Shown here piece after piece: positions 22,898-36,366 of a stretch of DNA of 64,000 nt. Below the pieces are notes generated by a model, which did no database searches, had not been told where the DNA came from, and saw only the letters and a program-made list of their open reading frames with translations. The first letter of the stretch is position 1, and every line of letters begins with the position of its first letter. The position numbers were made by a program, and so were the translations under genes. The stretch is taken from the NCBI GenBank assembly GCA_963664325.2, contig CAXXDQ010000003.1, positions 832,001 through 896,000 on the forward strand. The letters run 5' to 3'. This stretch comes from Desulfomonilia bacterium (GTDB lineage Bacteria > Desulfobacterota > Desulfomonilia > UBA1062).

Positions 22898-24028
22898 CTA
22901 TTTCTCCTCCATAAGCGCAATGAAATCCCTGAAGAGATAGTTGGAATCAAAAGGCCCGGGTGCAGCCTCAGGATGATACTGGACGCTGAAGGCCTTTCTC
23001 CTGGGATAAACAAGACCTTCAAGCGAATTGTCGTTAAGGTTGATATGGGTAACAATTGCGTCATCGGGCAAGGTTTCGGTGACCACGACAAAACCGTGAT
23101 TCTGTGACGTTATTTCGATTCTTCCTGTCCGCAGGTTCTTGACAGGCTGATTCACCCCATGATGGCCGAATTTTAGCTTTGACGTCTTTCCGCCTGCGGC
23201 AATCCCCATAAGCTGATGCCCGAGGCATATCCCGAAAACCGGGACCCGGCCGAGAATGGTTCTTACGGTTTCGATTATATAATCAAGCGGTTCAGGGTCT
23301 CCAGGACCGTTTGACAGCATGATGCCGTCAGGTTCCCAGTTCATGATATCTGATGCCTGCGTTGTCGACGGCACAACAACGACCTGGCAGCCGTGTCCTT
23401 CCAAGTGTCTGAGTATATTGTATTTCACGCCGCAGTCCAGCACGACAACCCGCTTTCTCCGGCCCCTTGAGCCTGCTTCCGAAATAGGTTTTTTACCGCC
23501 TTCATCCCACAGGTACGCAACTTTACCTGTTACATGCCGGACCATGTCCTGGCCGACCAGGCCGGGATAGGCACGGAGCCTTTCGAGGAGTCCATTCGGG
23601 TCACTGATATTGTTTGATATCACACCCTTCATGGCGCCCGCGGTACGGAGCTTTTTTGTTATGGCCCTTATATCGACATCATCGAGTCCGGGTTTGCCGA
23701 ATTTTTCAAGGAAGCTTTTAAGCGTTCTTGTTGAACGGAAATTGCTCGGGGCACCTTGATATTCACGGACTACAAAGCCTTCCATGTGAATTGCATCCGA
23801 TTCCATGTCTTCCTGGTTTATTCCGTAATTGCCTATCAGGGGGTAGGTCATTACCAGTATCTGGCCCTTGTAGGATGGGTCGGTAAGAACCTCCTGATAG
23901 CCTGCCATTCCGGTATTGAAAACGACTTCCCCGAATACCTCACCGCTGCCTGCAAAGGCATATCCGTCATATACGCTGCCATCCTCAAGCATGAGCAGGG
24001 CCGGCGGGTCAGTCCTGAAAAGAGGCAA
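22898..24028 (-). CDS. carA: Carbamoyl-phosphate synthase small subunit
   Basis: GEVVFNTGMAGYQE, SNGPGDP, GICLGHQ, QYHPEAAPGP. Confidence 0.98.
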   Translation of the reverse strand: MPLFRTDPPALLMLEDGSVYDGYAFAGSGEVFGEVVFNTGMAGYQEVLTDPSYKGQILVMTYPLIGNYGINQEDMESDAIHMEGFVVREYQGAPSNFRSTRTLKSFLEKFGKPGLDDVDIRAITKKLRTAGAMKGVISNNISDPNGLLERLRAYPGLVGQDMVRHVTGKVAYLWDEGGKKPISEAGSRGRRKRVVVLDCGVKYNILRHLEGHGCQVVVVPSTTQASDIMNWEPDGIMLSNGPGDPEPLDYIIETVRTILGRVPVFGICLGHQLMGIAAGGKTSKLKFGHHGVNQPVKNLRTGRIEITSQNHGFVVVTETLPDDAIVTHINLNDNSLEGLVYPRRKAFSVQYHPEAAPGPFDSNYLFRDFIALMEEK

Positions 24029-24157
24029 AATTTCCTCCTGGTTAAAATCCGCGGAAGGGATTTTTGAGACTCCTGTTTAATCGGGCGGCATGCCTTTTGT
24101 CAACAATATTAAGCTGGTCCTTCATACTTATTTCATATTTGAATCATTATGGTCTTT

Positions 24158-25420
24158 TCAAGACAAGCTTGATATTACAGTTTTTATGAGTTTAGTCAGA
24201 TTGGAAAGCCCGCCTGATAATCTTTTTATATACAGCATTGAGATGCTTTTTGATTTTTGATCCTTGTAACGTTTTTTCATAAAGGAGGACGAAGGGAAGG
24301 CCGCTTCAAAAACAAACTTCACCTTCTGCTTCAAAGGCAGCTGTTTTATTACGTACAGGTACTGCCTGGTCGATGTCTTCATCGGCTGGGAGTTGAGCTT
24401 GAGGATGAATGCATTTCTGTTTGAATTCAGGCGGCTTTCAACCGGAAGGGCTTTGCCGAAAAGTTCTTCACAGATACGTGATGCAAACATGAGGATATCC
24501 GTCAGGCCGAGCTTTTCAAAAATGCCTGAAAGCTCGTCCCAGTCGATCAGGTGATTCCATTTTTCCGCGATGAAATATGTTTCATAAAAGTGAAACAGTC
24601 CCGAGACAGCTGTGCCGTGGCAGTAATATACGTGCAGTATCTGATGGATAAGGCAGACCGTATGCGAAAGCATAAAAAGCCCCGGGATATTTTGGAAAAA
24701 TCTGTTATCCGGTATGGGCACAAGCTGTTCAAAAACCCAGCTGTTAAAGTCAAATCCTTTTTGCTGATATTGCTTGAGGAGCTTCCAGTGAAGTTCGATG
24801 ATCAGACCGTTTGCTGCAGTATTTCTTATCATCAGGTGTTTATCTTCAAGGATAGAGGATGACACGGGCCCCGAATGGGTTTTGTCTTCAACTAAAACAC
24901 TGTATCCGGCATTCTTCAGCTTGTCAGCAACCGCATTCAGGTTTTCATCACTGACGAGCAGGTCTGTATCGCACATATTTCTCAGAGATGTGTCTTCATA
25001 AAGAGTTAAAGCCATTACGCTGCCTTTGAGCATAATGACAGGCTGAAACACAGGCAGGACAGCAGGGAAGACGTTTCCTGAGAGCTCTTTATAGCGCAGT
25101 TCGTTTGTATGCTTTATTCGCATTCTCATGGCGCTGAAATTAAGCCATATATCCATGGGAATCTGTTCAAGAAGGGTTTTCAATTCGGGTTTTTTGCTGT
25201 TCATCAATGCCGCAACACCTTCACCAAGCGCTACTCTTTCAAAAAGCCGCCAGTCGTCAGCCGAGTACTCGGTCCAGGCAGCTTCATTGCACCTGTCCGA
25301 GAGGCATTTGCAGATGTCGAGGTAGACCTTCAGCAGATTATCTGCATTGTCATAACGCTCTTCAAGGGCCTCAAGAGGAATGTTCGTATTCTTTGGTCTG
25401 CTCTTTCCATGATCTGGCAT
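24158..25420 (-). CDS. Nucleotidyltransferase family protein (NTP_transf_5-like), RiPP-cluster associated
   Basis: MLKG...LY....R.MCDTDLLV and IELHW motifs; start uncertain (overlaps the ABC gene end). Confidence 0.8.
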   Translation of the reverse strand: MPDHGKSRPKNTNIPLEALEERYDNADNLLKVYLDICKCLSDRCNEAAWTEYSADDWRLFERVALGEGVAALMNSKKPELKTLLEQIPMDIWLNFSAMRMRIKHTNELRYKELSGNVFPAVLPVFQPVIMLKGSVMALTLYEDTSLRNMCDTDLLVSDENLNAVADKLKNAGYSVLVEDKTHSGPVSSSILEDKHLMIRNTAANGLIIELHWKLLKQYQQKGFDFNSWVFEQLVPIPDNRFFQNIPGLFMLSHTVCLIHQILHVYYCHGTAVSGLFHFYETYFIAEKWNHLIDWDELSGIFEKLGLTDILMFASRICEELFGKALPVESRLNSNRNAFILKLNSQPMKTSTRQYLYVIKQLPLKQKVKFVFEAAFPSSSFMKKRYKDQKSKSISMLYIKRLSGGLSNLTKLIKTVISSLS

Positions 25421-27242
25421 ACATGCCGCCCTTTTTTATGAGTTCATCATGAGTTCCTGATTCAACAATACTGCCTTTATCCATTACATGTATAATATCA
25501 GCCTGCATGGCCGTGGTGAACCTGTGGGTTATGATCAACGAGGTCTTTCCCCGAGCAAGAGCTTTAAACCTTTTGAGCCAGTCGTTTTCAGCCCACGAAT
25601 CCATGGAGCTTGTCGGTTCGTCAAGCATCAGGATTGCCGAGTTTCTCAAAAAAGCCCTCGCAAGGGCAACCCTCTGCCATTCCCCCAGGCTCAGGTCCGA
25701 ACCGCCGAACCACTTTCCGAGAACGGTTTCATAACCATTGGGAAGTCTTGAAATCGGGACATCGGCACCCGATGAGACCGCAGCCCTTTTTATATCATCC
25801 AGACCAGGTCCGGATTCCATACTGCCAAAGGCGATATTATCAAATGCCGTTGCATTGAAATGAACCGGTTCCTGAAAGAGCACGCTTATCCTTCCCCTGT
25901 GCCTTTTCAAATCCAGATCCTTCATATCGACACCGTCTAGAAGCACCCTGCCGCTTTCAGGGTCATAGAACCTGCATATGAGTCTGGTAAGAGTGCTCTT
26001 GCCCGCTCCGTTCGGGCCTACAATGGCTGTAGTTATGCCTGCTGGTATCTTAATGCTGAATTTCTTTATGACGTGATCTGCGCCGCAGGGGTATCTGAAA
26101 GTTGCATTGTCGAATACGATACCGTCTTTAAGGGAAGAATCGAATTCCAAGGGTTCAGCAGGGTTCTTCACCGTTGGCTCGATGCCGAAGAATACGAAGA
26201 GGTCGTCAACGAACATGCTGTTCTTGTATATAGTTCCAACATTGCCCAGTACATTTTTCATCAGACCCTGACCCTGGTTGAATGCCTGGTAGAGCATTGC
26301 GACTTCTCCCAGGTTGGCCTTTCCGTGTGCAGCCCTTAAAAGAATCCATATAACTGCAATTCCTATCACTGCCATGCCGAAAAGTTGAGCAGCGAATTCT
26401 GCCACGGCCTGCTCCCTGGTAAGCGCAATCTTTTCGTTTCTCAATACGGCCCTCAAGTTCTGATAACTTTTCCTGAAACTGTCACCCAGGCCGTAAAGCC
26501 TTATTTCCTGTGCGGAGTTCCTGTGGGTAATCATATGGTCGTAATAACCGGCCATCCTGGAGTCGGGCGTTCTCATTATTCTCCAGCTGTTCATCTTCCT
26601 CGAGTAGTAGCCTATTATGAACAGTGCGGGAATTGTGCCCACGAATAAGAGGACAGGCAGCAGAACTCCGAATGAAAAAAGTATGCCTGCCATTGCAAAA
26701 AGGGTGATGCAGCTCTGTACGAGCATGCCCAGGTTGTCGAGCAGAGTCTGCGGCATGTTCTTGGCATCGTTCTGCGCCCTGTAAAGCTTATCGAACGATT
26801 CCGGGGATTCGAAAAAGGCCATGTCCATCTCAAGGGCTTTTTCGTGGATCCTGTTTGTCATGGTGTCCTGTATGATTTCCGTCTGCTTTATTTTTACAAG
26901 TTTCTGTGCAAAACCGGCGATACTGTTTGCCAGATATATGATAATAAACAGCAGGGCCAGAGATACTGTTTTCGAGGCGTCGGTTCCCCTCCCCGAAATA
27001 GTAATGGTCAGGCTGTTTATGAAGGCTTTTGTCAGATACACGGTTGCAACCGGAAGAATGCCCTGAACGATAAGAAGGCACGCCCACAGTATCGTCCATT
27101 TACGGGCGATGTCCCAGACAAGGGCGGTAGCCTTGAAGAGGTTCCTTGTCAGCAAACTTATATTGTCCCAGATTTCTTTCGGGCTTTTGAATATCTTTTC
27201 ATCCACAAAGAAAACTATCTCATTAGATTTGATTCGATACAA
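25371..27242 (-). CDS. ABC exporter, fused permease-ATPase (no C39 domain)
   Basis: TM helices, GPNGAGKST, LSLGEWQRVALAR, LDEPT, THR; start uncertain. Confidence 0.92.
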   Translation of the reverse strand: MYRIKSNEIVFFVDEKIFKSPKEIWDNISLLTRNLFKATALVWDIARKWTILWACLLIVQGILPVATVYLTKAFINSLTITISGRGTDASKTVSLALLFIIIYLANSIAGFAQKLVKIKQTEIIQDTMTNRIHEKALEMDMAFFESPESFDKLYRAQNDAKNMPQTLLDNLGMLVQSCITLFAMAGILFSFGVLLPVLLFVGTIPALFIIGYYSRKMNSWRIMRTPDSRMAGYYDHMITHRNSAQEIRLYGLGDSFRKSYQNLRAVLRNEKIALTREQAVAEFAAQLFGMAVIGIAVIWILLRAAHGKANLGEVAMLYQAFNQGQGLMKNVLGNVGTIYKNSMFVDDLFVFFGIEPTVKNPAEPLEFDSSLKDGIVFDNATFRYPCGADHVIKKFSIKIPAGITTAIVGPNGAGKSTLTRLICRFYDPESGRVLLDGVDMKDLDLKRHRGRISVLFQEPVHFNATAFDNIAFGSMESGPGLDDIKRAAVSSGADVPISRLPNGYETVLGKWFGGSDLSLGEWQRVALARAFLRNSAILMLDEPTSSMDSWAENDWLKRFKALARGKTSLIITHRFTTAMQADIIHVMDKGSIVESGTHDELIKKGGMYARSWKEQTKEYEHSS

Positions 27243-27344
27243 CCTGTTTTTGGGGACATGATTGTTTCATGGTATTGCCATCCGGGTATAAATTCTGTAA
27301 GTCTGAATTTGTTGGGACGCAAATGATAATATTTGAGGGTTATT

Positions 27345-27527
27345 ATGAAGAAGGAACCATGGAAAAAACCTGAATTGATTGTCCTGGTGAAAAACCAGGC
27401 TGAAGAGGCCGTATTGAACGGATGCAAAGGTGGCGGTTCCACAACAAGCTTTTTATCACATAATGATAATTGTCATTCAGATGCTCCAGCCTGCACAACA
27501 TTATGCAGTTCTCCGCTAGCAAGCTGA
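27345..27527 (+). CDS. RiPP precursor peptide A1 (60 aa)
   Basis: MKKEPWKKPELIVLVKNQAEEAVLNGCKGGGSTTSFLSHNDNCHSDAPACTTLCSSPLAS; GAGGG RBS; four local paralogs. Confidence 0.88.
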   Translation: MKKEPWKKPELIVLVKNQAEEAVLNGCKGGGSTTSFLSHNDNCHSDAPACTTLCSSPLAS

Positions 27528-27591
27528 ATCGTGGATCAAATTCTGTTTCAATCTGAATTTGATAAGCAAAATCATATGGAGATAAAATAAG

Positions 27592-27795
27592 ATGAGAAAA
27601 GTAAGCAGAAAGAAAATAAGGACCGAGCCAGAGATGACCGTAATAGTCAGGAACATGCCTGAAGAAGCCGTTTTAACGGGATGCAAGAATGGCCCTGTAT
27701 ACACCGTGTCGGCTAATGATTACTGAGGGGGCTGTTATGCCCTTGGGGCATACAATCCTTGTCAGAACATATGCAATGCTTTGCAGGCTTCATAG
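27592..27795 (+). CDS. RiPP precursor peptide A2 with in-frame TGA (pseudogene or Sec recoding)
   Basis: MRKVSRKKIRTEPEMTVIVRNMPEEAVLTGCKNGPVYTVSANDY*GGCYALGAYNPCQNICNALQAS; TGA at 27724-27726; the family Cys/Ser pattern continues past it. Confidence 0.75.
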
Positions 27796-27843
27796 ATACG
27801 ACCATAAAAATGTCTTGAAATATTGAATCGCTCCACGGCATGC

Positions 27844-28881
27844 ATGAAGATGAATATTAAGATGGATCAAACTATTCAGGAAGACCGGCCTTCGCAATAT
27901 ATATTTCAGGGAGGAGAACTTCATCTTTCAAACTTAGGCCAGCTCGAGTTGCTGCGAGCAATGATGGAGCGCCGTGTTCCATTGCGCACGATGGTCCGCG
28001 GATTCAGCATGCATCCGTTCATCAGGGACGGGGATGTGCTCGTTATTTCGCCTCTAAACGGAAGGAAGCCTTCTCACGGTGATGTGGTTGCATTTACACA
28101 ACCGGTTATGGGAAGGCTCGCAGTTCACCGCATTGTCGGCAGATCAAAGTCGGGCCTGATTATACGCGGAGACAATTGCCATGAAGCGGACAGCGTCGTA
28201 ATGGCGGATCGCATACTGGGGAGAGTGACGCGCATCGAACGTTGCGGACGGACTGTCCGTACCGGTCTGGGCTATTCCGGCATGCTGATTGCAGCATTAA
28301 ATAAAGGTGATCGTTTGATGCGTGTAAAACATGTCATCAATACTCCCCGCCGGGCAGCAAGCTATGCGCTCAGGTACCTGCAGGCGGTTTCCTGCTATCG
28401 ACTTCTTCTCAGAAGACTGGCATTGGCAACTGTTATCGAAAAGGCCGATGAAAGCGATATGGAAGCCGTTCATAAGCGCTTCAATCCGTATAGTCCGTAT
28501 CGAAAGCAGCCAGATAATCCAGAAGTAACCAACTGGGTTGCCAGGCGCTCAGGCAAAGTACTTGGCTTCATACAGCTTGTGTATCATCCCGAAAAGCATT
28601 TCCCATGGGTTGGGTTCTGGCTTTTTTCTCTTCATGTATGGAGTTTATACCGAGGGTTTGGCGTAGGCGAAAAGCTTGCCCGCCGGGTTATTGAAAAAGC
28701 TGTCGAAATGGGTGCCCAAGAGCTCAACCTTGTTGTTTATGAAGACAACCTGAGCGCCATCAGGCTATATGGTAAACTCGGATTTGTGCATGCAACACTG
28801 CCAGGTCTCGAACCGATGTTTTTATCCGAACAGCAAAGGACCGGGCGAAGAAGAATAGTCATGCAAAAGCAATTGGGTTGA
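27844..28881 (+). CDS. S24/S26 peptidase - GNAT acetyltransferase fusion
   Basis: RGFSMHPFIRDGD, VHRIV, RGDN (signal-peptidase-like Ser/His); C-terminal YRGFGVGEKL...N.SAIRLYGKLGF (GNAT); start uncertain (27823-27862). Confidence 0.85.
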   Translation: MKMNIKMDQTIQEDRPSQYIFQGGELHLSNLGQLELLRAMMERRVPLRTMVRGFSMHPFIRDGDVLVISPLNGRKPSHGDVVAFTQPVMGRLAVHRIVGRSKSGLIIRGDNCHEADSVVMADRILGRVTRIERCGRTVRTGLGYSGMLIAALNKGDRLMRVKHVINTPRRAASYALRYLQAVSCYRLLLRRLALATVIEKADESDMEAVHKRFNPYSPYRKQPDNPEVTNWVARRSGKVLGFIQLVYHPEKHFPWVGFWLFSLHVWSLYRGFGVGEKLARRVIEKAVEMGAQELNLVVYEDNLSAIRLYGKLGFVHATLPGLEPMFLSEQQRTGRRRIVMQKQLG

Positions 28882-29044
28882 ATACCCTATAAGCATAACA
28901 CCAGATGGATGTTGTTTCCTGCAGCTTCAATTATCCGGCAGTAATTTTTTTGTTTTCCTCGATCATCAGAGCTAACCTTCACTCCATGACTCGTTTCGAT
29001 TTCTGCCGGTGTTTCGGCTCTCGACGAGGTGCTTCTGGAAGAGA

Positions 29045-29221
29045 TTATGATTGCACATCCCCACTGCAAACAGGACATTCTTCTTCGCCGCTGATCTGGC
29101 ATTCTACATTCGTGTTATTCGGGCCCTCAAGCAAATATGGCCTTTTGCACGCGGCGAGTATACTTTCAGCACTCTTAATACGCACTAACGCAATCAATTG
29201 GGGAACATGCCACTGCCTCAT
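29045..29221 (-). CDS. RiPP precursor peptide A3 (58 aa)
   Basis: MRQWHVPQLIALVRIKSAESILAACKRPYLLEGPNNTNVECQISGEEECPVCSGDVQS; same leader and Cys/Ser pattern. Confidence 0.82.
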   Translation of the reverse strand: MRQWHVPQLIALVRIKSAESILAACKRPYLLEGPNNTNVECQISGEEECPVCSGDVQS

Positions 29222-29433
29222 ACAAGCAATCATCTCCCTTACGCTTTAAGATACCATATGCTGTTAATTGATATTCCTTCCGACAAAAATCAACGATAAG
29301 TATAAAATATCAATCGATCGTCAGAAAGCAAGAAAAAACAGAGTTCACAGTTCAGGGTTAAAGGCTGAAGGTTCACAGTTCGTATTATATGGGTGGTCGG
29401 CGGGGACGGTCCCGGTTGCGGTGCGCTAAGCGT

Positions 29434-30546
29434 TTAAGGGCTGTTTCCTCCGTCCCTAATCGCTGCTGCCCTTGCGTGAGCCAACTCGCAGAAGTAGGGA
29501 GTTGCGCCGTCCAGTTCGCCTGTCTCCAAGTGCGCATGGGCAGGGCACCACAGGCACAGGTTTACTATTGGGCATTTGCGGCATGAGTCGAGGAAAGATC
29601 TTTTGTCAGAACGCATATCCCGGATTTTCGGAACAGCTTCCCAAGCGTCTTTCAGTGCGACCTTTCTTAGATCGCGGGTCGTTTCATCGGCCCACAACGA
29701 TGAGCAGAGGCGGAACCTTCCGTCATAGCTTACATTAAAGCTCCCGTTGCCTGCACCGCAGTGGAACAGGTGGTTGCAGTCGATGTGGCCGAACTTATCG
29801 TTTATCAATAAGCTGCAATTTTTTATCAAAGCGCCGAACCGCTCTTCATCTGACTTTTCCAGCTCGATCATCTCTGCAGGGGTCAAACGTTCAGAACGGA
29901 TTTCAGCGTTTCTTTTCTCGTCGCCGTCGAAACGCAGATGAAGCTGCGGATCGAACCTGAAAAAGTCTTTTGTCCGGGCGCGGCAGAAATCGGCAATTCT
30001 TTTCTGCTCGTGCAGGTTTGACCTGATTGCCATTGTCTTAAGCCTGATCCTGATGCCGTTTTTTATAAGCAGGTCAAGTCCAGTCATGAATTTTCCGAAT
30101 GATCCGGGGCGTCTGGTAACGCACTCATATGTTTCCTTTGTCACGCCGTATACTGTCGTTTCAATGTCACGCGGCGGGAATTTTTTAAAAAGCCTGATGT
30201 GTTCTTCATTCAGCAGGGCGGCGTTTGTAAAAACCGAAACCAGCAGTCCCTTTTTCTTCAGCATCATATAAATTTCGGTAAAATCCTGCCTTAGAAGAGG
30301 TTCTCCACCTGTTAACAAACACCAGACGGCTCCCATATCCACGGCCTGTGCGGCTATATCCGCGATCTCTCCGACGCTTAATTCTCCGGATAGGGCATCA
30401 TTGTCGCCGGCGGGCAGATTGATATAGCAGTGGCGGCAGTTCATATTGCATCTGGCGGTTATTTCGATATCAAAGGATATCGGAGAACGTTTTGACTTAA
30501 GCCTGTCCCAGAGGCCGAATCGCTGTATCTCAATCTTTTCAGACAC
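29434..30546 (-). CDS. Radical SAM/SPASM peptide maturase
   Basis: CNMNCRHC, TGGEPLLR, CGAG...C...CRKCPIVNLCLWCPA...C. Confidence 0.92.
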   Translation of the reverse strand: MSEKIEIQRFGLWDRLKSKRSPISFDIEITARCNMNCRHCYINLPAGDNDALSGELSVGEIADIAAQAVDMGAVWCLLTGGEPLLRQDFTEIYMMLKKKGLLVSVFTNAALLNEEHIRLFKKFPPRDIETTVYGVTKETYECVTRRPGSFGKFMTGLDLLIKNGIRIRLKTMAIRSNLHEQKRIADFCRARTKDFFRFDPQLHLRFDGDEKRNAEIRSERLTPAEMIELEKSDEERFGALIKNCSLLINDKFGHIDCNHLFHCGAGNGSFNVSYDGRFRLCSSLWADETTRDLRKVALKDAWEAVPKIRDMRSDKRSFLDSCRKCPIVNLCLWCPAHAHLETGELDGATPYFCELAHARAAAIRDGGNSP

Positions 30547-30555
30547 TTGTGAGGT

Positions 30556-30855
30556 TCAATTTTTTATGGAAAGGATGCGGCGGTTGACCATCTCAGAGGC
30601 AAAGCCTATTACATCCTTTTCTATCTCACCGGTATCAGATGAAAACTCGTCGGAAAGTTCAGCCGCAACTTGTCCAAGTGATTTCCCTCCGTCAAGCTTC
30701 TTCCATATGGCCTTGCCGGTATCGTTCAATGTGTACAATTCGTCGTCCGCATCTCCAATGCCTGCGATGAGCGGTACGATGATGATATCGCCCTCGATCT
30801 CCCGTGAAACTATGTCATCCGATAGTGTACAGATAGTTTTAGCATCAATATTCAT
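30556..30855 (-). CDS. PqqD-family RiPP recognition element
   Basis: VSREIEGDIIIVP...YTLNDTGKAIWKKLDG...EIEKDVIGF. Confidence 0.92.
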   Translation of the reverse strand: MNIDAKTICTLSDDIVSREIEGDIIIVPLIAGIGDADDELYTLNDTGKAIWKKLDGGKSLGQVAAELSDEFSSDTGEIEKDVIGFASEMVNRRILSIKN

Positions 30856-30881
30856 ATTTAGCAGTCTCCCGTTCCAATATA

Positions 30882-31058
30882 TTATGAAGGATTCCAGGTG
30901 CTGCAGTTAGGGCAACCAGGCCCCGTGTCGTTACATAGCCTGTCACTGATTGATGGACCCTCGTGGCCTCCGCCTTCGTCCTTGCAGGTGGCAAGGACAT
31001 TTTCTTCCGTATTGCTTCTCGCCAGTACTATAAGCTCGGGCTTCTTCCATCTTTTCAT
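30882..31058 (-). CDS. RiPP precursor peptide A4 (58 aa; not in ORF track)
   Basis: Manual translation MKRWKKPELIVLARSNTEENVLATCKDEGGGHEGPSISDRLCNDTGPGCPNCSTWNPS; AGGGAG RBS. Confidence 0.88.
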   Translation of the reverse strand: MKRWKKPELIVLARSNTEENVLATCKDEGGGHEGPSISDRLCNDTGPGCPNCSTWNPS

Positions 31059-31113
31059 CAGATATCTCCCTTTATTATAAATTAATTTTCAGTATCAAAA
31101 TTTCATTGTTTGT

Positions 31114-32277
31114 TCAATTGTGAACATATTCATCGGACTGACCGATTCTCTCCTTCCAATCCTCAACCTCCCAGCCGAATTCATTTTTAGCAAGCCAGCC
31201 CATCCACCGCGCCTGAGCATGTGCAGCCTCACAGAGATATTTGACTGGGGTATCAAGAGTCTGATGTTCGCTCCATGACTTTGCGGGGCACTGTTCGCAG
31301 AGTCCCTTCAGAAAACATAATGCACAGCGTTTCAGATATTCCGGGTTTTTCGCACGCATTTCTCTCAGATCCCTAAATTTGTCCAGGATTGTTTCAAGTG
31401 AATACTTGCATGTATCATATGTCAATTCAGGCGCCCGTACACCCATGCAGGGTTGTGCGGTGCCGTATGCATCGATGCACATGCCGCAGCCTGCCCCGCA
31501 CCTGAACAGATTTTCGCCCGGCGGTCCCATGAATTTCGATGCGAACTCGCTTGTGCTCTTTCTGAATTTATCAGCATCCCTTGTGAGGATTCTCAAGCCC
31601 TCCTCAGGTGACAGGCGGATTGATCTGATCATTGCGTTTTTTTCAACGTCATCGCATCTGTTCCTTAGGTCGAAGAACATCGAATAGCTCGGCCTTTTCG
31701 TCATCCATCGTATTGTCTCGGCCCATGCCTCAAACTCGTCCATCTCGTATCTGTTCTGAGGCAGAAGCGCCGACTTTATAATGAACGGGACTCCACGCTT
31801 GATAAGCAGATCGACACCGCGCCGGTACTGTTTGAACGAGCCTTTCGAGCGTGTCACAGCTTCATAGGATTTCTCATGCATGCCGTAGGAGGTTATTTCG
31901 ATTGTCACAAGCGGCGGGACGCGTTTGAAAAGCTCGGCAAGTCTCTCATCGATAAGCCTGGCATTAGTGAAAACAAGGACTTTCATGCCCAGCTTTCTTG
32001 CAAAAATGTAAAGCTCTTCGAAATCAGGTCTCAACAGCGGCTCTCCGCCGGTGAATCTTACCTTCATACATCCGAGCCTTTCGGCCTGAATGAGTATCTC
32101 CTTTATTTGTGCGGTGCCCATCTCGCTGTCTTTGGCCCTTCTGTCGTTTGCTGGTAGATTGATGCAGCAGTGGATGCAGTCGTTGTTGCACCTTTCGGTC
32201 AGTTCTATATCAAGACTGCCTAACTTTGGGGCAATCGGCTTATACATTCCTTTTATCTGCCTGATATATTCGCTCAT
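31114..32277 (-). CDS. Radical SAM/SPASM peptide maturase
   Basis: CNNDCIHC, TGGEPLLR, CGAG...C...CALCFLKGLCEQCPA...C; paralog of 29434-30546. Confidence 0.92.
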   Translation of the reverse strand: MSEYIRQIKGMYKPIAPKLGSLDIELTERCNNDCIHCCINLPANDRRAKDSEMGTAQIKEILIQAERLGCMKVRFTGGEPLLRPDFEELYIFARKLGMKVLVFTNARLIDERLAELFKRVPPLVTIEITSYGMHEKSYEAVTRSKGSFKQYRRGVDLLIKRGVPFIIKSALLPQNRYEMDEFEAWAETIRWMTKRPSYSMFFDLRNRCDDVEKNAMIRSIRLSPEEGLRILTRDADKFRKSTSEFASKFMGPPGENLFRCGAGCGMCIDAYGTAQPCMGVRAPELTYDTCKYSLETILDKFRDLREMRAKNPEYLKRCALCFLKGLCEQCPAKSWSEHQTLDTPVKYLCEAAHAQARWMGWLAKNEFGWEVEDWKERIGQSDEYVHN

Positions 32278-32293
32278 AGTTGTTATTGTAATA

Positions 32294-32467
32294 TTAACTC
32301 AATAGAATTTCACTGCATGTATCACAAGCTTGGTAACACACCCCGCTTTCATCTGCGGGTGAACTTATCGGCTCAACCCCTTTACAGGATGCCAGTGCCA
32401 TCTCTTCATGATTGCTCCGCACAAGTATGGTCAGTTCAGGTTTTTGCCATTCCTTTTTCTCTTCCAT
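32294..32467 (-). CDS. RiPP precursor peptide A5 (57 aa; not in ORF track)
   Basis: Manual translation MEEKKEWQKPELTILVRSNHEEMALASCKGVEPISSPADESGVCYQACDTCSEILLS. Confidence 0.88.
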   Translation of the reverse strand: MEEKKEWQKPELTILVRSNHEEMALASCKGVEPISSPADESGVCYQACDTCSEILLS

Positions 32468-32486
32468 CACTATTCTCGTTTTAAAA

Positions 32487-34508
32487 TTATTTTACACGCG
32501 CAGAAATCAGCATCTTTTCAATTTTTTCAACAATTACAGCTGACTTGTCAAAGTGCATTGTGAAGCATGGGATCTCATTTACTATCTGCTCCAGTACATC
32601 GAGTTCCTTTCGCCACCATTCGGCAGTTACCATTGGCCGTATAAGCGTTGCGAGAAGCCCTTTCCATACTGCCTTTTTATCGGAGAGAGGTTCGATTTTG
32701 TTTTTTGTGTCCTGTTTCAGAAAAAGGATCGCCTTTAGCGGAGCTGTTGAAGGAGATACATCTGCCGTAGTGCCGTGGCTCCATGTGCCGTGGACACGCC
32801 AGCCTTCAGGCCATTTTCTTATGACATTCCTGTCGTCGCAAAGGATCTCGGCATTCAATCCGCTTTCTTTCCTGGCCGCCTTCAGTATTTCCATTGCCGT
32901 TGACTTTCCCGCCTCGGAATGACCGACAAATACCAGGCCATGGCCGTTTATAATGGCGGCAGCCGAGTGTATGAGCACGGCGTTTCTGTCTGCAAGCAAG
33001 GGCCCAAGCCATATCTGGTCGGTCGGAAAGAGCGAGAGGGATTGAAATCCGGTATCTATTGTTCGCTCTTCGTCTCGTGGCGGGCTGTAGATTGTGGCAT
33101 GGGTATGGTCTGAATTGAATACAGCCACACGGTGCAGGCTGGGATCTTCGGGCCGGGGTGAGATGCCGAGATAATAGAACGCCCCGTTCTTTTCCGAGAT
33201 GGCCCATGGCGGCTTGCGGTAGATTTCCCGGCCAAGGTCTTTGCCGGTGAGGTCGGGAAGTTCGAAGTGGTGTCTTAATGTTACATTGTCATCGCCGGGT
33301 CCTGACACCTCGAATGCCTTCAGTTCTTCCTTGATTTTTATTATACTTAAATCAAGATCGCTTTCAATACGTACCGTGATGCCTGCAATCTGAAAATATT
33401 TTCTATGATTTTTCTTCCACATGGTCTTGAATTTCTGCGCTTCCTTCGCAACCTCACACAGATAAGGTACAGGTGCCGAAAACCTGCCTGTTTCAAGATA
33501 GGAATAAACCGCGCACCAGCGGCAGTCGGAACGATTGTCACACGAGCCGCAATTGTTGCGCCATTCCTCGCCTCCCCGAACCTTATCTGCGCAGGACGGG
33601 ATGAAAGCATCCCAGGCCTCTTTGAATGACCCTTTACGAATGTCATACCTCAAGGCAGGGTCTTTTATGAAGCTGCACCAGGACATCCCTCCATAGGGGT
33701 CGATATGAAAATCCCGGCGGCCTTCAATGCACCTGGCAAACAAACGGTCATCTCCGGGGGCGACAGATCCGCAGGCCGGATCATCTACTGCATTGTCATT
33801 CAATTCAGTTGTACGTTCATAATGCGAAAGATCTGGTTTGTCGAGTTCTATCACGTCACAGGGCTTAAGACGCTGACATGCAATTTCATGATTTCTCTCA
33901 GGGGAACCGCTGGATGACAGGTAGAGCCAGGGGGCACCGACACGCCAGTGTTTGCTGAGATGTTTCGCGAGTTCGATCATCTTATTCCACTGATGCCAAT
34001 TGGCGGCCATTGGAATGAGCTGGACTATAAAACCTGCACCTGCTTTCTTGAGATACGAAAAGCCCTGCATGACCTGTTCGAATCCGTGAGGATTGCCTGT
34101 AACATCCTCATATACCTTCGGGTCCGCTCCATAGAGGGCTATCATTTTACTGCCCTTGCGGGTAAGAAGACGGGCGATTTCATGGGTGATCAGCGTGCCG
34201 TTGGTGTTTATTGTGTATCCTATGGATTTGTTTGTTATGTAGTCGAATATATCGGCAAAATCCGGCCTGAGCATGGGCTCGCCGCCTGAAATTCCCCATT
34301 TCCTGCAGCCCATGCTTCGGGCTTCATCGATAATCCGCCTTATATTGTCAAAAGACATTTCTTCATTTTTCTCAGGGGAGTCCGCCGGAATCCTGAGCCA
34401 GCAGTGCCGGCACCGGTTGTTGCAGCGGTAGGTAAGATCTATATTCCCTTCAAGCGGGAGACGGGGCATGTATGAACACTTTCTTGATATATATGTCTTA
34501 TTATTCAT
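32487..34508 (-). CDS. Radical SAM/SPASM enzyme fused to HPr-kinase-like P-loop domain
   Basis: CNNRCRHC, SGGEPMLR, CGSCDNRSDCRWC; C-terminal IHSAA...GHSEAGKST...LCDDR. Confidence 0.9.
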   Translation of the reverse strand: MNNKTYISRKCSYMPRLPLEGNIDLTYRCNNRCRHCWLRIPADSPEKNEEMSFDNIRRIIDEARSMGCRKWGISGGEPMLRPDFADIFDYITNKSIGYTINTNGTLITHEIARLLTRKGSKMIALYGADPKVYEDVTGNPHGFEQVMQGFSYLKKAGAGFIVQLIPMAANWHQWNKMIELAKHLSKHWRVGAPWLYLSSSGSPERNHEIACQRLKPCDVIELDKPDLSHYERTTELNDNAVDDPACGSVAPGDDRLFARCIEGRRDFHIDPYGGMSWCSFIKDPALRYDIRKGSFKEAWDAFIPSCADKVRGGEEWRNNCGSCDNRSDCRWCAVYSYLETGRFSAPVPYLCEVAKEAQKFKTMWKKNHRKYFQIAGITVRIESDLDLSIIKIKEELKAFEVSGPGDDNVTLRHHFELPDLTGKDLGREIYRKPPWAISEKNGAFYYLGISPRPEDPSLHRVAVFNSDHTHATIYSPPRDEERTIDTGFQSLSLFPTDQIWLGPLLADRNAVLIHSAAAIINGHGLVFVGHSEAGKSTAMEILKAARKESGLNAEILCDDRNVIRKWPEGWRVHGTWSHGTTADVSPSTAPLKAILFLKQDTKNKIEPLSDKKAVWKGLLATLIRPMVTAEWWRKELDVLEQIVNEIPCFTMHFDKSAVIVEKIEKMLISARVK

Positions 34509-34884
34509 TTAATAATTTCATATATATTATTTTGTATTTATCAATAAGATTTATAGGCCAACGAATAAAAATGGTATGAAACAAGTATTCAACGTGATAC
34601 TTGAATCATATGCTGAAATCCCCCCGGTTACATATATGAATCTTCCCGGTATAGATATAGGAATATCAGCCCTTGAACCTGTTGTTTAGAATTGTTTTAA
34701 GATAGGTCATACTTCGGAACAGGGCGGTTATGATGTCATGGCCCGATCCATCAAATTTTTAAAATAATGCTAGAAAATATCAATGTGCTATAAAAGCATT
34801 ATATCAAGAGGGCTTGTCTTGTAGGCATATACTGCTATTATTAAAATATTATATAATTGTTTATTCAATTTGTGAGGGACGGAT

Positions 34885-36366
34885 ATGAAAAAATTGATCC
34901 TGCTTGTTTCAGTTCTGTTTGCCGGTTGTGTTCCTGCTGCAGTAAATGACGGAAAAGAACCGCCGGCCAACCAGTATCTTGCCGATTCACCATGGAATAT
35001 GACTCACCGGAATCCCTACTGCCAGGCGTCTTCCCCATATCCCGGACCGGACAAAGGCATAAGCGGCAAGGATTACATAATCGGGACGCCCGGCTGTATC
35101 ACCATGCCCATTTCAGGAAAATATCCTGACGGCAGCCGTGTCGTGTGGGGCAACAACCTGACAAATGTCTTCAAGCTGGGCACGAAAAACAACAAGTTAT
35201 CCGAGATCGATGAAATAAAAAAAGACTCAAGCGGCAGCGGAGACGGCGGCCTCGTCGAGAAGGGAATATCAGGTGCATATACTCTTATTGACAGGGACGG
35301 GGTGTTTTTCGTGCCCGATATGACAAGGATATTTGCATACTGCGATTCAGTAACGGGCGACCCGGGGTCAAAGATCAAAATAAAGGGTGTTTACAGCATT
35401 CCTGCCGGGTATCTGCATGGAGGTACGGATAAAATTGTCGGCCTTGTCATGACATATGACGGCATGCTCGTATTTGCAACGAACACGGGATTGATAGGTG
35501 CAGTTTCGCGAGGCTTCGACAGGGCATATTTCCTTTATCTCGGTGAGGATGATGAGTTGTCCAATTCAATTGCCTGCGATGAACAGGGTGGTATCTATGT
35601 CGTAACGAGCAGGAAGATGTACCGTGTCCAATGGACGGGGGCAGAGCTTACGACCGATGAAGCAAAAGGGGGCTGGACTGCCGATTATGAAACAGGCAGT
35701 GACCAGTCGGGGATTCGCCTCGGCAAGGGCTCAGGCACAACCCCGACACTTATGGGCGTGGGCAGACAGGACAGGTTTGTAGCCATAACCGACGGGAGTG
35801 AACTCATGAACATGGTTTTGTTCTGGCGTGATAAGATTCCTGAAGGCTGGCAACAGATTCCAGGTACAAAAGACAGGAGGATTGCAGCGCAGGTGCCGGT
35901 AAGGTTCGGCGACTCTGATGCGAAGCATTCGCAGACGGACCAGTCTCTGTGTGTCCGCGGTTACGGTGCCGTTGTTGTCAACAATGAACTCGGTGCAGAT
36001 CTTGGCAGCCGGACGCTCAACATCATTATTTCCGGGGTCCCAGGCATAGCACCCAAGGGCATTGAAAAATTCGAATGGAATCCTGAAACAAGGACGCTCT
36101 CATCTGTCTGGGCAAACAGGCAGATATCGATACCCAACGGCATACCCTGCATGAGCGCCGCAACCGGCCTTTGCTATGCAATCGGAAAGCGAGGCATATT
36201 CTGGACGCTCGAGGCTCTTGACTGGAATACAGGAGAATCTGTTTTTTATTCAAACATAGGAATAGGCCTTCAATACAACAGCGCATATGCAGCGACGCAG
36301 GTAGGGCTTGAAGGTTGCATATACTCCGGAACGGCAATCGGGCTTGTAAATCTCAGGCCTGAATAA
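34885..36366 (+). CDS. Hypothetical lipoprotein (probable beta-propeller)
   Basis: Lipobox LFAGC; beta-rich Gly/Trp motifs; fold is inference. Confidence 0.75.
   Translation: MKKLILLVSVLFAGCVPAAVNDGKEPPANQYLADSPWNMTHRNPYCQASSPYPGPDKGISGKDYIIGTPGCITMPISGKYPDGSRVVWGNNLTNVFKLGTKNNKLSEIDEIKKDSSGSGDGGLVEKGISGAYTLIDRDGVFFVPDMTRIFAYCDSVTGDPGSKIKIKGVYSIPAGYLHGGTDKIVGLVMTYDGMLVFATNTGLIGAVSRGFDRAYFLYLGEDDELSNSIACDEQGGIYVVTSRKMYRVQWTGAELTTDEAKGGWTADYETGSDQSGIRLGKGSGTTPTLMGVGRQDRFVAITDGSELMNMVLFWRDKIPEGWQQIPGTKDRRIAAQVPVRFGDSDAKHSQTDQSLCVRGYGAVVVNNELGADLGSRTLNIIISGVPGIAPKGIEKFEWNPETRTLSSVWANRQISIPNGIPCMSAATGLCYAIGKRGIFWTLEALDWNTGESVFYSNIGIGLQYNSAYAATQVGLEGCIYSGTAIGLVNLRPE

Follow-up and report, generated by a model that had tools for sequence, protein, structure and literature searches.

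Three kinds of described peptide maturation system come close to the gene cluster analysed here, which occupies positions 24158-34508 of a 64,000-nucleotide stretch of DNA (the window from here on) from a Desulfomonilia bacterium (Desulfobacterota; assembly GCA_963664325.2, contig CAXXDQ010000003.1, positions 832,001 to 896,000 of the forward strand) and which probably makes peptides that are produced by ribosomes and modified after translation (RiPPs). The first are the phosphorylated and phosphoglycosylated lasso peptides, for which we compared paeninodin, pseudomycoidin and the Bradymonas bsf cluster. HPr-kinase homologues are reported to phosphorylate the C-terminal Ser of lasso precursors and, in pseudomycoidin, a nucleotidyltransferase puts a hexose on that phospho-Ser (PMC8498205). 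A second source describes strong stimulation of a lasso kinase by a discrete RiPP recognition element (RRE), a requirement for the leader, and leaders that carry the motif Y-x-x-P-x-L (PMC10368454). The second kind are the sactipeptides and ranthipeptides (AlbA, StsB, PapB and the SCIFF maturases), and the third is SynChlorMet, a bioinformatically defined and uncharacterised cassette (TIGR04248 ScmD, TIGR04249 ScmC, TIGR04250 ScmE, TIGR04251 ScmF).

The window cluster appears to share with the lasso systems a discrete PqqD-type RRE, an aromatic-x-x-P-x-L leader, a kinase of the HPr-kinase fold, a nucleotidyltransferase gene and an ABC exporter. Besides, the lasso kinase works on the linear precursor and the C-terminal Ser is a known lasso phosphorylation site. 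The analogy of kinase plus nucleotidyltransferase, drawn earlier from the sequence of the window, is documented in these two sources (PMC8498205, PMC10368454). However, no lasso cyclase or B2 transglutaminase-type protease was found among the cluster's proteins, which include instead three radical S-adenosylmethionine (rSAM)/SPASM enzymes and an S24/S26 peptidase. With the sactipeptide and ranthipeptide systems it shares SPASM rSAMs and an RRE acting on Cys-containing precursors. Here the differences are that the RRE is discrete whereas it is fused in those classes, that there are three paralogous enzymes per peptide with scores far under the maturase cut-offs, and that the kinase, the peptidase-GNAT protein and the nucleotidyltransferase are foreign to those classes. 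The relationship to SynChlorMet is closer and is taken up below.

We consider it probable that the region is a RiPP biosynthetic gene cluster of a large, conserved and uncharacterised family, whose peptides are matured along the lines proposed below. The logic of a RiPP pathway with an RRE and SPASM rSAMs is known; what appears to be uncharacterised is this architecture together with its precursor signature. No literature on the family was found in a search that left most subscription journals and the supplementary lists of rSAM-RiPP families outside, nor any paper text with one of six precursor leader strings or with SynChlorMet by name. This is consistent with the statement in the sequence-only reading that no characterised product was known. 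One candidate paper (PMC13692751) was discarded; to judge from its abstract, it deals with another system, Crp of Methanococcus voltae.

The gene cluster

All 12 open reading frames (ORFs) of the sequence-only reading are present in the ORF list at the positions given for them, and the domains ascribed to them pass Pfam, where each score is judged against the gathering cut-off of the family (29.5 bits for Radical_SAM). The features are as follows, in window coordinates.

24158..25420, minus strand: NTP_transf_5 nucleotidyltransferase, 420 aa, accessory tailoring enzyme (Pfam PF14907, 93.3 against 31.2 bits)
25371..27242, minus strand: ABC exporter, permease-ATPase fusion, 623 aa (Pfam ABC_membrane 63.6 and ABC_tran 108.1 bits)
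27345..27527, plus strand: precursor A1, 60 aa from the ATG at 27345, the ORF opening at a TTG at 27333 (leader W-K-K-P-E-L, C-K, three more Cys, C-x5-S end)
27592..27795, plus strand: precursor A2, interrupted by a TGA at 27724-27726, probably a pseudogene
27823..28881, plus strand: peptidase of the S24/S26 type (ca. residues 1-190) with a GNAT domain joined to it (ca. residues 200-352), both by Pfam
29045..29233, minus strand: precursor A3, 62 aa, the paralogue that diverges most (leader W-H-V-P-Q-L, C-K, three more Cys, Ser end)
29434..30546, minus strand: rSAM/SPASM enzyme 1 (rSAM1), 370 aa (Pfam Radical_SAM 75.4 and SPASM 21.9 bits)
30556..30855, minus strand: stand-alone PqqD protein, 99 aa, the presumed leader-binding RRE (Pfam PqqD, 52.9 against 23.4 bits)
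30882..31058, minus strand: precursor A4, 58 aa, aligning with its paralogues
31114..32277, minus strand: rSAM/SPASM enzyme 2 (rSAM2), 387 aa (Pfam Radical_SAM 80.2 bits; Cys motifs)
32294..32470, minus strand: precursor A5, 58 aa, aligning with its paralogues
32487..33410, minus strand: ScmC-like P-loop domain of the PEPCK/HPr-kinase fold, the C-terminal 307 residues of a fusion protein (ScmC model, fold)
33411..34508, minus strand: rSAM/SPASM enzyme 3 (rSAM3), the N-terminal 366 residues of the same fusion (Pfam Radical_SAM 87.4 bits; Cys motifs)

The minus-strand block runs from 34508 to 29045 and holds, in this order, the 673-aa fusion, A5, the 387-aa rSAM, A4, PqqD, the 370-aa rSAM and A3. 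On the plus strand, A1, A2 and the 352-aa peptidase-GNAT gene (27333-28881) converge on this block, and the genes of the exporter and the NTP_transf_5 protein (27242 to 24158, minus strand) diverge from A1. The description of the locus as a cluster of RiPP type, with SPASM rSAMs and a discrete RRE, stands. In Pfam and NCBIfam the seven large proteins gave no match to the families of lasso cyclases, YcaO, lanthionine synthetases or PqqB/C, as had been said before. Two earlier statements need amending. Five precursor-like ORFs do align with one another, but only four are intact, A2 being interrupted; and not every gene is equally part of the system, the three rSAMs, PqqD and the precursors forming its core while the exporter, the GNAT domain and the nucleotidyltransferase are accessory and not universal.

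A large family in anaerobic bacteria and methanogenic archaea

The cluster belongs to a large and conserved family that occurs in many anaerobic bacteria and in methanogenic archaea. In a large protein database 1150 proteins of fusion length match the fused domain at E <= 0.001, under source names such as Smithella, Syntrophaceae, Aminicenantes and an anammox planctomycete, and a more sensitive search retrieved 3737 domain representatives at 50% clustering, both stand-alone (ca. 300 aa) and fused (ca. 650 aa). Among 61 related genomes a match was found in 16 and was strong (E <= 1e-88) in 10, the window's own included; eight of these strong matches fall within open frames of 662-697 aa, the other two within shorter frames at contig ends. 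Three genomes of the same genus carry the same gene set with its order largely kept, although one of the contigs ends inside the cluster. Six more distant relatives all keep the fusion and rSAM2, with precursors found in five of them, and in the four distant loci that are not cut by a contig end PqqD and rSAM1 were always present and a short peptidase was present in three. As the layout recurs in the three congeners, and its core in these six relatives and in 79 named loci from many phyla, the arrangement is not due to chance.

The named loci come from a scan of 185,579 genomes, one per species, that gave 304 matching stretches, of which the best 79 were named; co-occurrence was counted in the 44 of them that are at least 13 kb long. 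All were chosen by the kinase-like domain. The queries came from the window, and the counts are lower bounds. In these 44 long loci we found rSAM2 in 43, rSAM1 in 42, PqqD in 43, at least one precursor in 40, the S24 peptidase in 34, the ABC exporter in 29, NTP_transf_5 (by hidden Markov model) in 25, GNAT in 21 and a methyltransferase in five. Furthermore, an rSAM match directly precedes the kinase-like domain in 67 of the 79. The picture of a one-off hybrid pathway had to be given up in view of the 1150 fusion homologues and the 283 precursor homologues described in the next section.

The bacterial labels among the best 79 loci are Thermodesulfobacteriota, Myxococcota, Acidobacteriota, Synergistota, Chloroflexota, Planctomycetota, Actinomycetota, Chlorobiota, Omnitrophota, Bacillota and Bacteroidales, and the archaeal ones Methanothrix, Methanolinea and Methanospirillum (loci L060, L072, L092, L095, L102 and L111). 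These loci are from metagenome-assembled genomes (MAGs), in which a label can err, for example through mis-binned contigs. The presence of the cassette in methanogens as well as in syntrophic bacteria such as Smithella, along with the grouping of the Methanothrix/Methanotrichaceae rows in each rSAM clade (see below), is consistent with transfer of whole cassettes between bacteria and archaea in shared habitats.

One of the congeners (G003) has a 4.4-kb insertion between rSAM1 and the peptidase-GNAT gene (L028:8078-12344) with ORFs of 82, 203, 150, 530 and 463 aa, the last of which starts like a response regulator (to judge by the start of its sequence). No homologue of A3 was found in this genome.

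Precursor peptides

The precursors share the signature W-x-x-P-x-L-x-x-L-x-R-x3-E-E-x-V-L-x-x-C-K, followed by about 13-17 variable residues and an end of the form C-x(4-9)-C-x(2,3)-C-x5-[ST]. A profile of 20 precursors matched 283 database proteins, none with a Pfam family; where they are named at all they are called "hypothetical protein", save for one generic Fe-S protein label. Among the best 120 of the 283, the leader Trp is present in 118, the final residue is Ser in 106 and Thr in 10, and four Cys, counted from the invariant Cys-Lys, are found in 101. The 116 precursors of the named loci give a similar count, with a Ser end in 106 and a Thr end in five (the other five look truncated), and in 102 of them six residues follow the last Cys. 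When 236 unique precursors were considered, Cys at position -7 together with Ser/Thr at -1 occurred in 211, with the next Cys at -10 or -11 and the remaining tail positions variable. In other words, the Cys and the terminal Ser/Thr are the only conserved positions of the core. A conserved leader, together with a core that is hypervariable and with many paralogues, points, as far as the sequences can tell, to an exported peptide that diversifies rather than to a cofactor.

This genome has nine precursors: five belong to the cluster, and four are orphans that lie at three loci elsewhere. The orphans are intact (L012:6095-6286, plus strand; L013:6905-7084, minus; L013:10576-10761, plus; L014:7029-7232, minus), and no paralogues of the cluster enzymes adjoin their genes. 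They are probably served in trans by the cluster in the window. Even richer loci exist, with 10 precursors in a Dehalococcoidia MAG, eight in a Eubacteriales MAG and six in a Methanothrix MAG (among L106, L109, L095 and L102).

A complex of the PqqD protein with A4 was predicted with a score of 0.44, against 0.00 for the best of three controls; the runs share at least 89% of their contacts and the partner has a predicted local distance difference test (pLDDT) value of at least 49. Of 80 solved complexes 58 attain the mark that this prediction reached, as do two of 110 mismatched pairs, but with scores of 0.60 or less only seven of the 80 do, along with both of the passing mismatches. This gives weak support to the predicted binding of the precursor by the PqqD protein, a claim that we do not rest on it; as RRE-leader complexes have been solved, resemblance to these could account for the pass. 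The two lasso PqqD models score the window protein at 28.8 (cut-off 70) and 25.6 bits (cut-off 80).

Three radical SAM enzymes

The three rSAM proteins have a CX3CX2C motif within residues 29-40 (at 33-40 in rSAM1) and a C-terminal set GX4C ... CX2CX5CX2C ... C that is typical of SPASM domains (CX2CX5CX2C at 322 in rSAM1). The Pfam SPASM model itself passes only for rSAM1 (29434-30546), and there narrowly, at 21.9 against 21.5 bits. Since the Fe-S motif begins at residues 29-33, there is no room in any of the three for an RRE of its own.

A quick maximum-likelihood tree was made of 74 rows, comprising rSAM matches from 24 of the 79 loci, the three enzymes of the window and ScmE and ScmF from the same genome. 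In it rSAM1, rSAM2 and rSAM3 form three clades of 24 rows each, with Shimodaira-Hasegawa-like approximate likelihood-ratio supports of 98, 100 and 99, and the genome's ScmE and ScmF stand outside all three on branches of 4.8-5.9 changes per column. The three-clade tree therefore suggests that the paralogues diverged before the cassette spread, and this early divergence argues for three non-redundant rSAM roles. In each clade the three rows from Methanothrix/Methanotrichaceae cluster together. One Methanotrichaceae locus contains six rSAM2-like matches.

The fused kinase-like domain

The 307 C-terminal residues of the fusion had no significant match in our local copy of Pfam, in which the best was the P-loop of ABC_tran, under threshold at E = 0.2; the domain carries a precomputed label (PF27840) in the large protein database, an accession absent from that local copy. 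With the ScmC model it gave E = 1e-7 (31.6 bits against a cut-off of 125), with that of HPrK-related kinase B (HprK_rel_B) E = 0.0033 (16.6 against 200 bits), and it matched no lasso-specific model of NCBIfam. A phmmer search of the PDB with the single sequence gave no matches, while a profile search gave mostly the P-loops of ABC ATPases, with HPrK (1jb1) at E = 2.7e-4.

An AlphaFold2 model built with 60 homologues (pLDDT 96.5, predicted template modelling score 0.92) retrieved PEP carboxykinase (PEPCK) as the best Foldseek match at E = 1.8e-7 and HPr kinase/phosphorylase (1kkl_B) at E = 1.2e-6, with a template modelling (TM) score of 0.50 on the target. VIA-align against PEPCK 2pc9_A gave Z = 13.0 and a root mean square deviation of 5.5 Å over 243 aligned residues, which cover the model in its full length. 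An intact Walker A loop, G-H-S-E-A-G-K-S, is present at domain residue 163. The likeness to HPr kinase/phosphorylase and PEPCK thus consists of the fold and this loop; the differences are an identity of 9-16%, the fusion to an rSAM and the presumed substrate, a small precursor peptide. On the strength of the predicted model, the domain can be called a kinase as regards its fold and its nucleotide-binding motif, and at that level the earlier claim of a kinase domain was borne out by Foldseek and VIA-align.

Peptidase, acetyltransferase and other accessory enzymes

The peptidase half of the 352-aa protein passes the Pfam Peptidase_S24 model at 24.5 against 23.3 bits, and its best NCBIfam match is the archaeal-type signal peptidase I (TIGR02228, 42.4 against 51.85). 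In an alignment of 17 sequences, which includes the peptidase fused to ScmC in the SynChlorMet cassette of this genome, the motifs G-x-S-M-x-P (G-F-S-M-H-P in the window protein), H-R and G-D-N are kept across phyla; S62 is nearly invariant, with one Cys at the Ser position, and H102 is invariant. There is no hydrophobic or membrane segment in the peptidase-GNAT protein, and together with the conserved motifs this leads us to read the half as a predicted soluble Ser/His leader peptidase. The other half passes Pfam Acetyltransf_1 at 57.2 against 20.7 bits and has the R-x-x-G-x-G motif of GNAT enzymes (R-G-F-G-V-G at residue 277).

No long locus has both GNAT (21 of 44) and the methyltransferase (5 of 44), as though the two stood in for each other in capping. 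Some loci with a GNAT-less peptidase have a gene for a SAM-dependent methyltransferase (L031:7339-8166, L036:7372-8223 and some of the named loci).

A homologue of the NTP_transf_5 protein lies directly upstream of the fusion gene in two relatives (G056 and G060, 126 and 154 bits). The window protein had no match in NCBIfam, and a paper found to name NTP_transf_5 or PF14907 deals with an unrelated subject, phosphonate biosynthesis. As for the exporter, no C39 peptidase domain was found in it with Pfam, and its top NCBIfam matches are MsbA-like and far under cut-off.

A proposed maturation pathway

We propose that the PqqD protein would bind the W-x-x-P-x-L leader and present the peptide to the three rSAMs, each of which would make one crosslink, most likely a thioether, on the Cys-bearing core. 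With ATP, the fused kinase-like domain would then put a phosphate on the hydroxyl of a Ser or Thr, most likely that of the near-invariant C-terminal residue, and the NTP_transf_5 enzyme, where present, would decorate that phosphate. The soluble peptidase would cut off the leader, after which the fused GNAT domain (the methyltransferase in other lineages) might cap the new amino group, and the ABC transporter would export the product. The thioether crosslinks, the C-terminal phosphorylation and the N-terminal capping are inferred by analogy with the systems described above.

Several observations weigh against this pathway or narrow it. None of the three rSAMs attains a curated NCBIfam cut-off, whether of the sactipeptide, the ranthipeptide or any other maturase models: the AlbA model gives 59.9, 45.6 and 49.7 bits for the three enzymes (cut-off 850), StsB 77.1 and 74.6 for two of them (625), PapB 42.7 (340) and MftC 67-88 (265). 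Because of this, the chemistry of the rSAMs cannot be transferred by homology. The tree is a quick one, its clade labels come from best tblastn matches, and long-branch effects were flagged. Co-occurrence is mute on whether the kinase-like domain is dispensable, because the loci were selected by that very domain. One characterised lasso kinase acts on Ser3 and not on the C-terminus (PMC10368454), so that the kinase fold does not generally imply a C-terminal target, and the SynChlorMet cassette of this genome has ScmC, yet its candidate precursors end in Gly-Phe and not in Ser. No precursor was found with the precursor model in four of the 44 long loci, nor with the patterns used in L032 (relative G042). 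With NTP_transf_5 in just 25 and GNAT in just 21 of the 44, the terminal decorations do not define the class. Finally, scans for promoters (21 against 16.8 +/- 3.9) and terminators (7 against 11.7 +/- 3.7) did no better in the window than in shuffled sequence.

Among the alternatives, the one that fares best keeps the RiPP cluster and changes its chemistry. The rSAMs would perform a radical reaction other than thioether formation (C-C or C-O crosslinks, epimerisation, or a (thio)oxazole-type modification of Cys), with the conserved Cys serving for disulfides or metal binding. SPASM enzymes perform many reaction types, and the best NCBIfam matches of the three enzymes, all far under cut-off, are a mixture of non-thioether enzymes (AhbD at 101.5 and 107.5 bits, MftC at 83-88, NirJ-type, WgkB at 55-65). 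Moreover, 19 of the best 120 precursors have fewer than four Cys. On the other hand, the Cys are the only conserved positions of the core besides the terminal Ser/Thr, and the presence of three core Cys beside three rSAM clades is suggestive of thioethers, a weak point that carries no biochemical weight. We regard this alternative as unlikely.

The pathway proposed above could be taken a step further, to a new RiPP class with a three-Cys core, one crosslink per rSAM, a C-terminal Ser/Thr that is phosphorylated and extended, a leader that is cleaved, an N-terminus that is capped, and a cassette that has spread horizontally. In this full form the proposal is tentative, and we would not expect all of it to hold. 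If it did, the product would be a triply bridged peptide with both ends blocked, in which the phosphorylated Ser/Thr sits exactly six residues past the last Cys, and the cassette would have passed horizontally between strict anaerobes belonging to at least 12 phyla, and on to methanogenic archaea. Its presence in syntrophs and in their methanogen partners would then point to a role in the interactions of methanogenic consortia.

Much new enzyme chemistry, and antimicrobial or signalling molecules, have come from peptides modified by rSAM/SPASM enzymes, and this is a large family with a sharply defined precursor signature that is still without a functional name. The cluster joins the RRE, kinase and nucleotidyltransferase of lasso type with rSAMs of the sactipeptide and ranthipeptide type and with a leader protease of the signal-peptidase type, which are found elsewhere in different classes. 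It also looks tractable, with small soluble enzymes, substrates of 58-64 residues and four intact substrates in one operon set.

Relationship to the SynChlorMet cassette

The cluster could simply be a SynChlorMet cassette, already catalogued in TIGRFAM/NCBIfam though uncharacterised, in which case nothing new would have been defined. The resemblance, pointed out before, is real. Both have an HprK-like P-loop protein (ScmC-like, and matched by the ScmC model at E = 1e-7 in the fused domain), a PqqD-like protein (ScmD-like), at least two SPASM rSAMs and a signal-peptidase-like domain, so that their domain inventories are equal. ScmE and ScmF are among the top model matches of the rSAMs, an aromatic-x-x-P-x-[LV] leader and Cys-bearing precursors are common to both, and both occur in syntrophs, green sulfur bacteria (Chlorobiaceae) and methanogens.

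A near-canonical Scm cassette is present in the window's own genome, on contig C7 (L015:5200-11084), with two PqqD-like genes and with ScmC fused to a signal-peptidase domain. Its candidate precursors have a Y-E-A-P-K-[AV] leader, cores of GDC repeats and a Gly-Phe end. This cassette offers a direct comparison: it scores 391.7 with ScmE (cut-off 400), 313.6 with ScmF (400), 54.4 with ScmD (100) and 153.7 with ScmC (125), whereas the window cluster scores 86.2, 56.2 and 54.4 with ScmE and 79.1, 82.1 and 77.6 with ScmF for its three rSAMs, 26.5 with ScmD for PqqD, and 31.6 with ScmC. The window cluster is thus far under the curated cut-offs of all four Scm models, and membership of SynChlorMet was rejected on these grounds. 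In addition, ScmE and ScmF fall outside all three rSAM clades, the window family has three rSAMs against two in SynChlorMet, and its P-loop domain forms one protein with an rSAM, whereas that of the Scm cassette is joined to the peptidase. The precursors differ too, those of the window having C-K, three Cys and C-x5-Ser/Thr in place of the GDC repeats and Gly-Phe. It is thus quite improbable that the cluster is nothing but a SynChlorMet cassette, and by these sequence comparisons it is a distant sister of that cassette and not a member. The cluster would also provide an experimental handle on SynChlorMet, its closest relative and a cassette that has long been uncharacterised.

Exported peptide or cofactor

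A PqqD protein combined with a SPASM rSAM is also the logic of PQQ and mycofactocin, and MftC and PqqE are among the model matches. The system could accordingly mature a peptide-derived redox cofactor or another intracellular factor, which would suit a family spread over strict anaerobes, methanogens included, and the absence of an ABC exporter from 15 of the 44 long loci. To our knowledge, cofactor precursors have invariant cores, and those described here are hypervariable save for the Cys and the last residue. There are also many paralogous precursors (nine in this genome and up to 10 per locus), and an exporter is present in the other 29 long loci. We find the cofactor reading very unlikely and keep that of an exported, diversifying peptide.

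Precursor A2, a probable pseudogene

The A2 gene (27592-27726) ends after 44 residues at an in-frame TGA (27724-27726). If it is read through, the frame continues GGCYALGAYNPCQNICNALQAS, by which the family's Cys pattern C..C...C-x5-S and the final Ser are regained. The orthologues in two genomes of the same genus read SANDYWGGCY at this place, with TGG (Trp) at the TGA codon. In A2 the leader Trp is replaced by Arg, and other residues of the motif are changed too. Three contig sets of one sample carry the identical A2 DNA with the TGA; they are not independent, and the sample is possibly the source of the window, but since all three have the same letters a one-off assembly slip is excluded. 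Nine nucleotides after the TGA there is a perfect 7-bp hairpin (stem uaugccc/gggcaua, loop uug; window 27724-27752), specific to the window's copy and without counterpart in the two copies of the congeners. Its folding energy corresponds to z = -2.13, and nine of 200 shuffles fold equally well. That stop and hairpin are found together in one genome may be due to chance. Because the congeners have TGG at that codon, we read A2 as a pseudogene, probably a recent one, and not as a selenoprotein.

Bacterial selenocysteine insertion sequence (SECIS) loops usually start with G-U. That the TGA encodes selenocysteine, giving a core motif U-G-G-C, is highly improbable and was largely rejected, for while the genome has SelA (507 bits), SelB (275), SelD (380) and tRNA-Sec, and the read-through that restores the exact C-terminal pattern, the window-specific hairpin and the TGA in three contig sets would all suit it, the congeners have at this codon a Trp and not a Cys, with TGG one transition away from TGA, the lost leader Trp and changed motif residues are as expected under relaxed selection, the hairpin is unremarkable among shuffles and its U-U-G loop is without the usual start, and the three contig sets come from a single sample.

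The selD gene itself (C3:477478-478392, L010) has an in-frame TGA, and its product is probably a selenoprotein. The SelB match (C4:883195-885037, L001/L006) is split into two adjacent pieces, which meet at about C4:884903, which could reflect a frameshift or an artefact of the search.

Flanking genes

A search of window positions 23500-35500 with Rfam at the gathering threshold gave no matches. On one side the cluster is flanked by carA/carB, and on the other by a lipoprotein-like ORF without a Pfam family and by a protein with a CarboxypepD_reg domain. The lipoprotein-like ORF encodes 493 aa (34885-36366, plus strand) and has the N-terminus ...LFAGC. None was seen adjoining the cluster in the annotated distant relatives, but in the congener G003 it is syntenic with the cluster (L028:433-1914).

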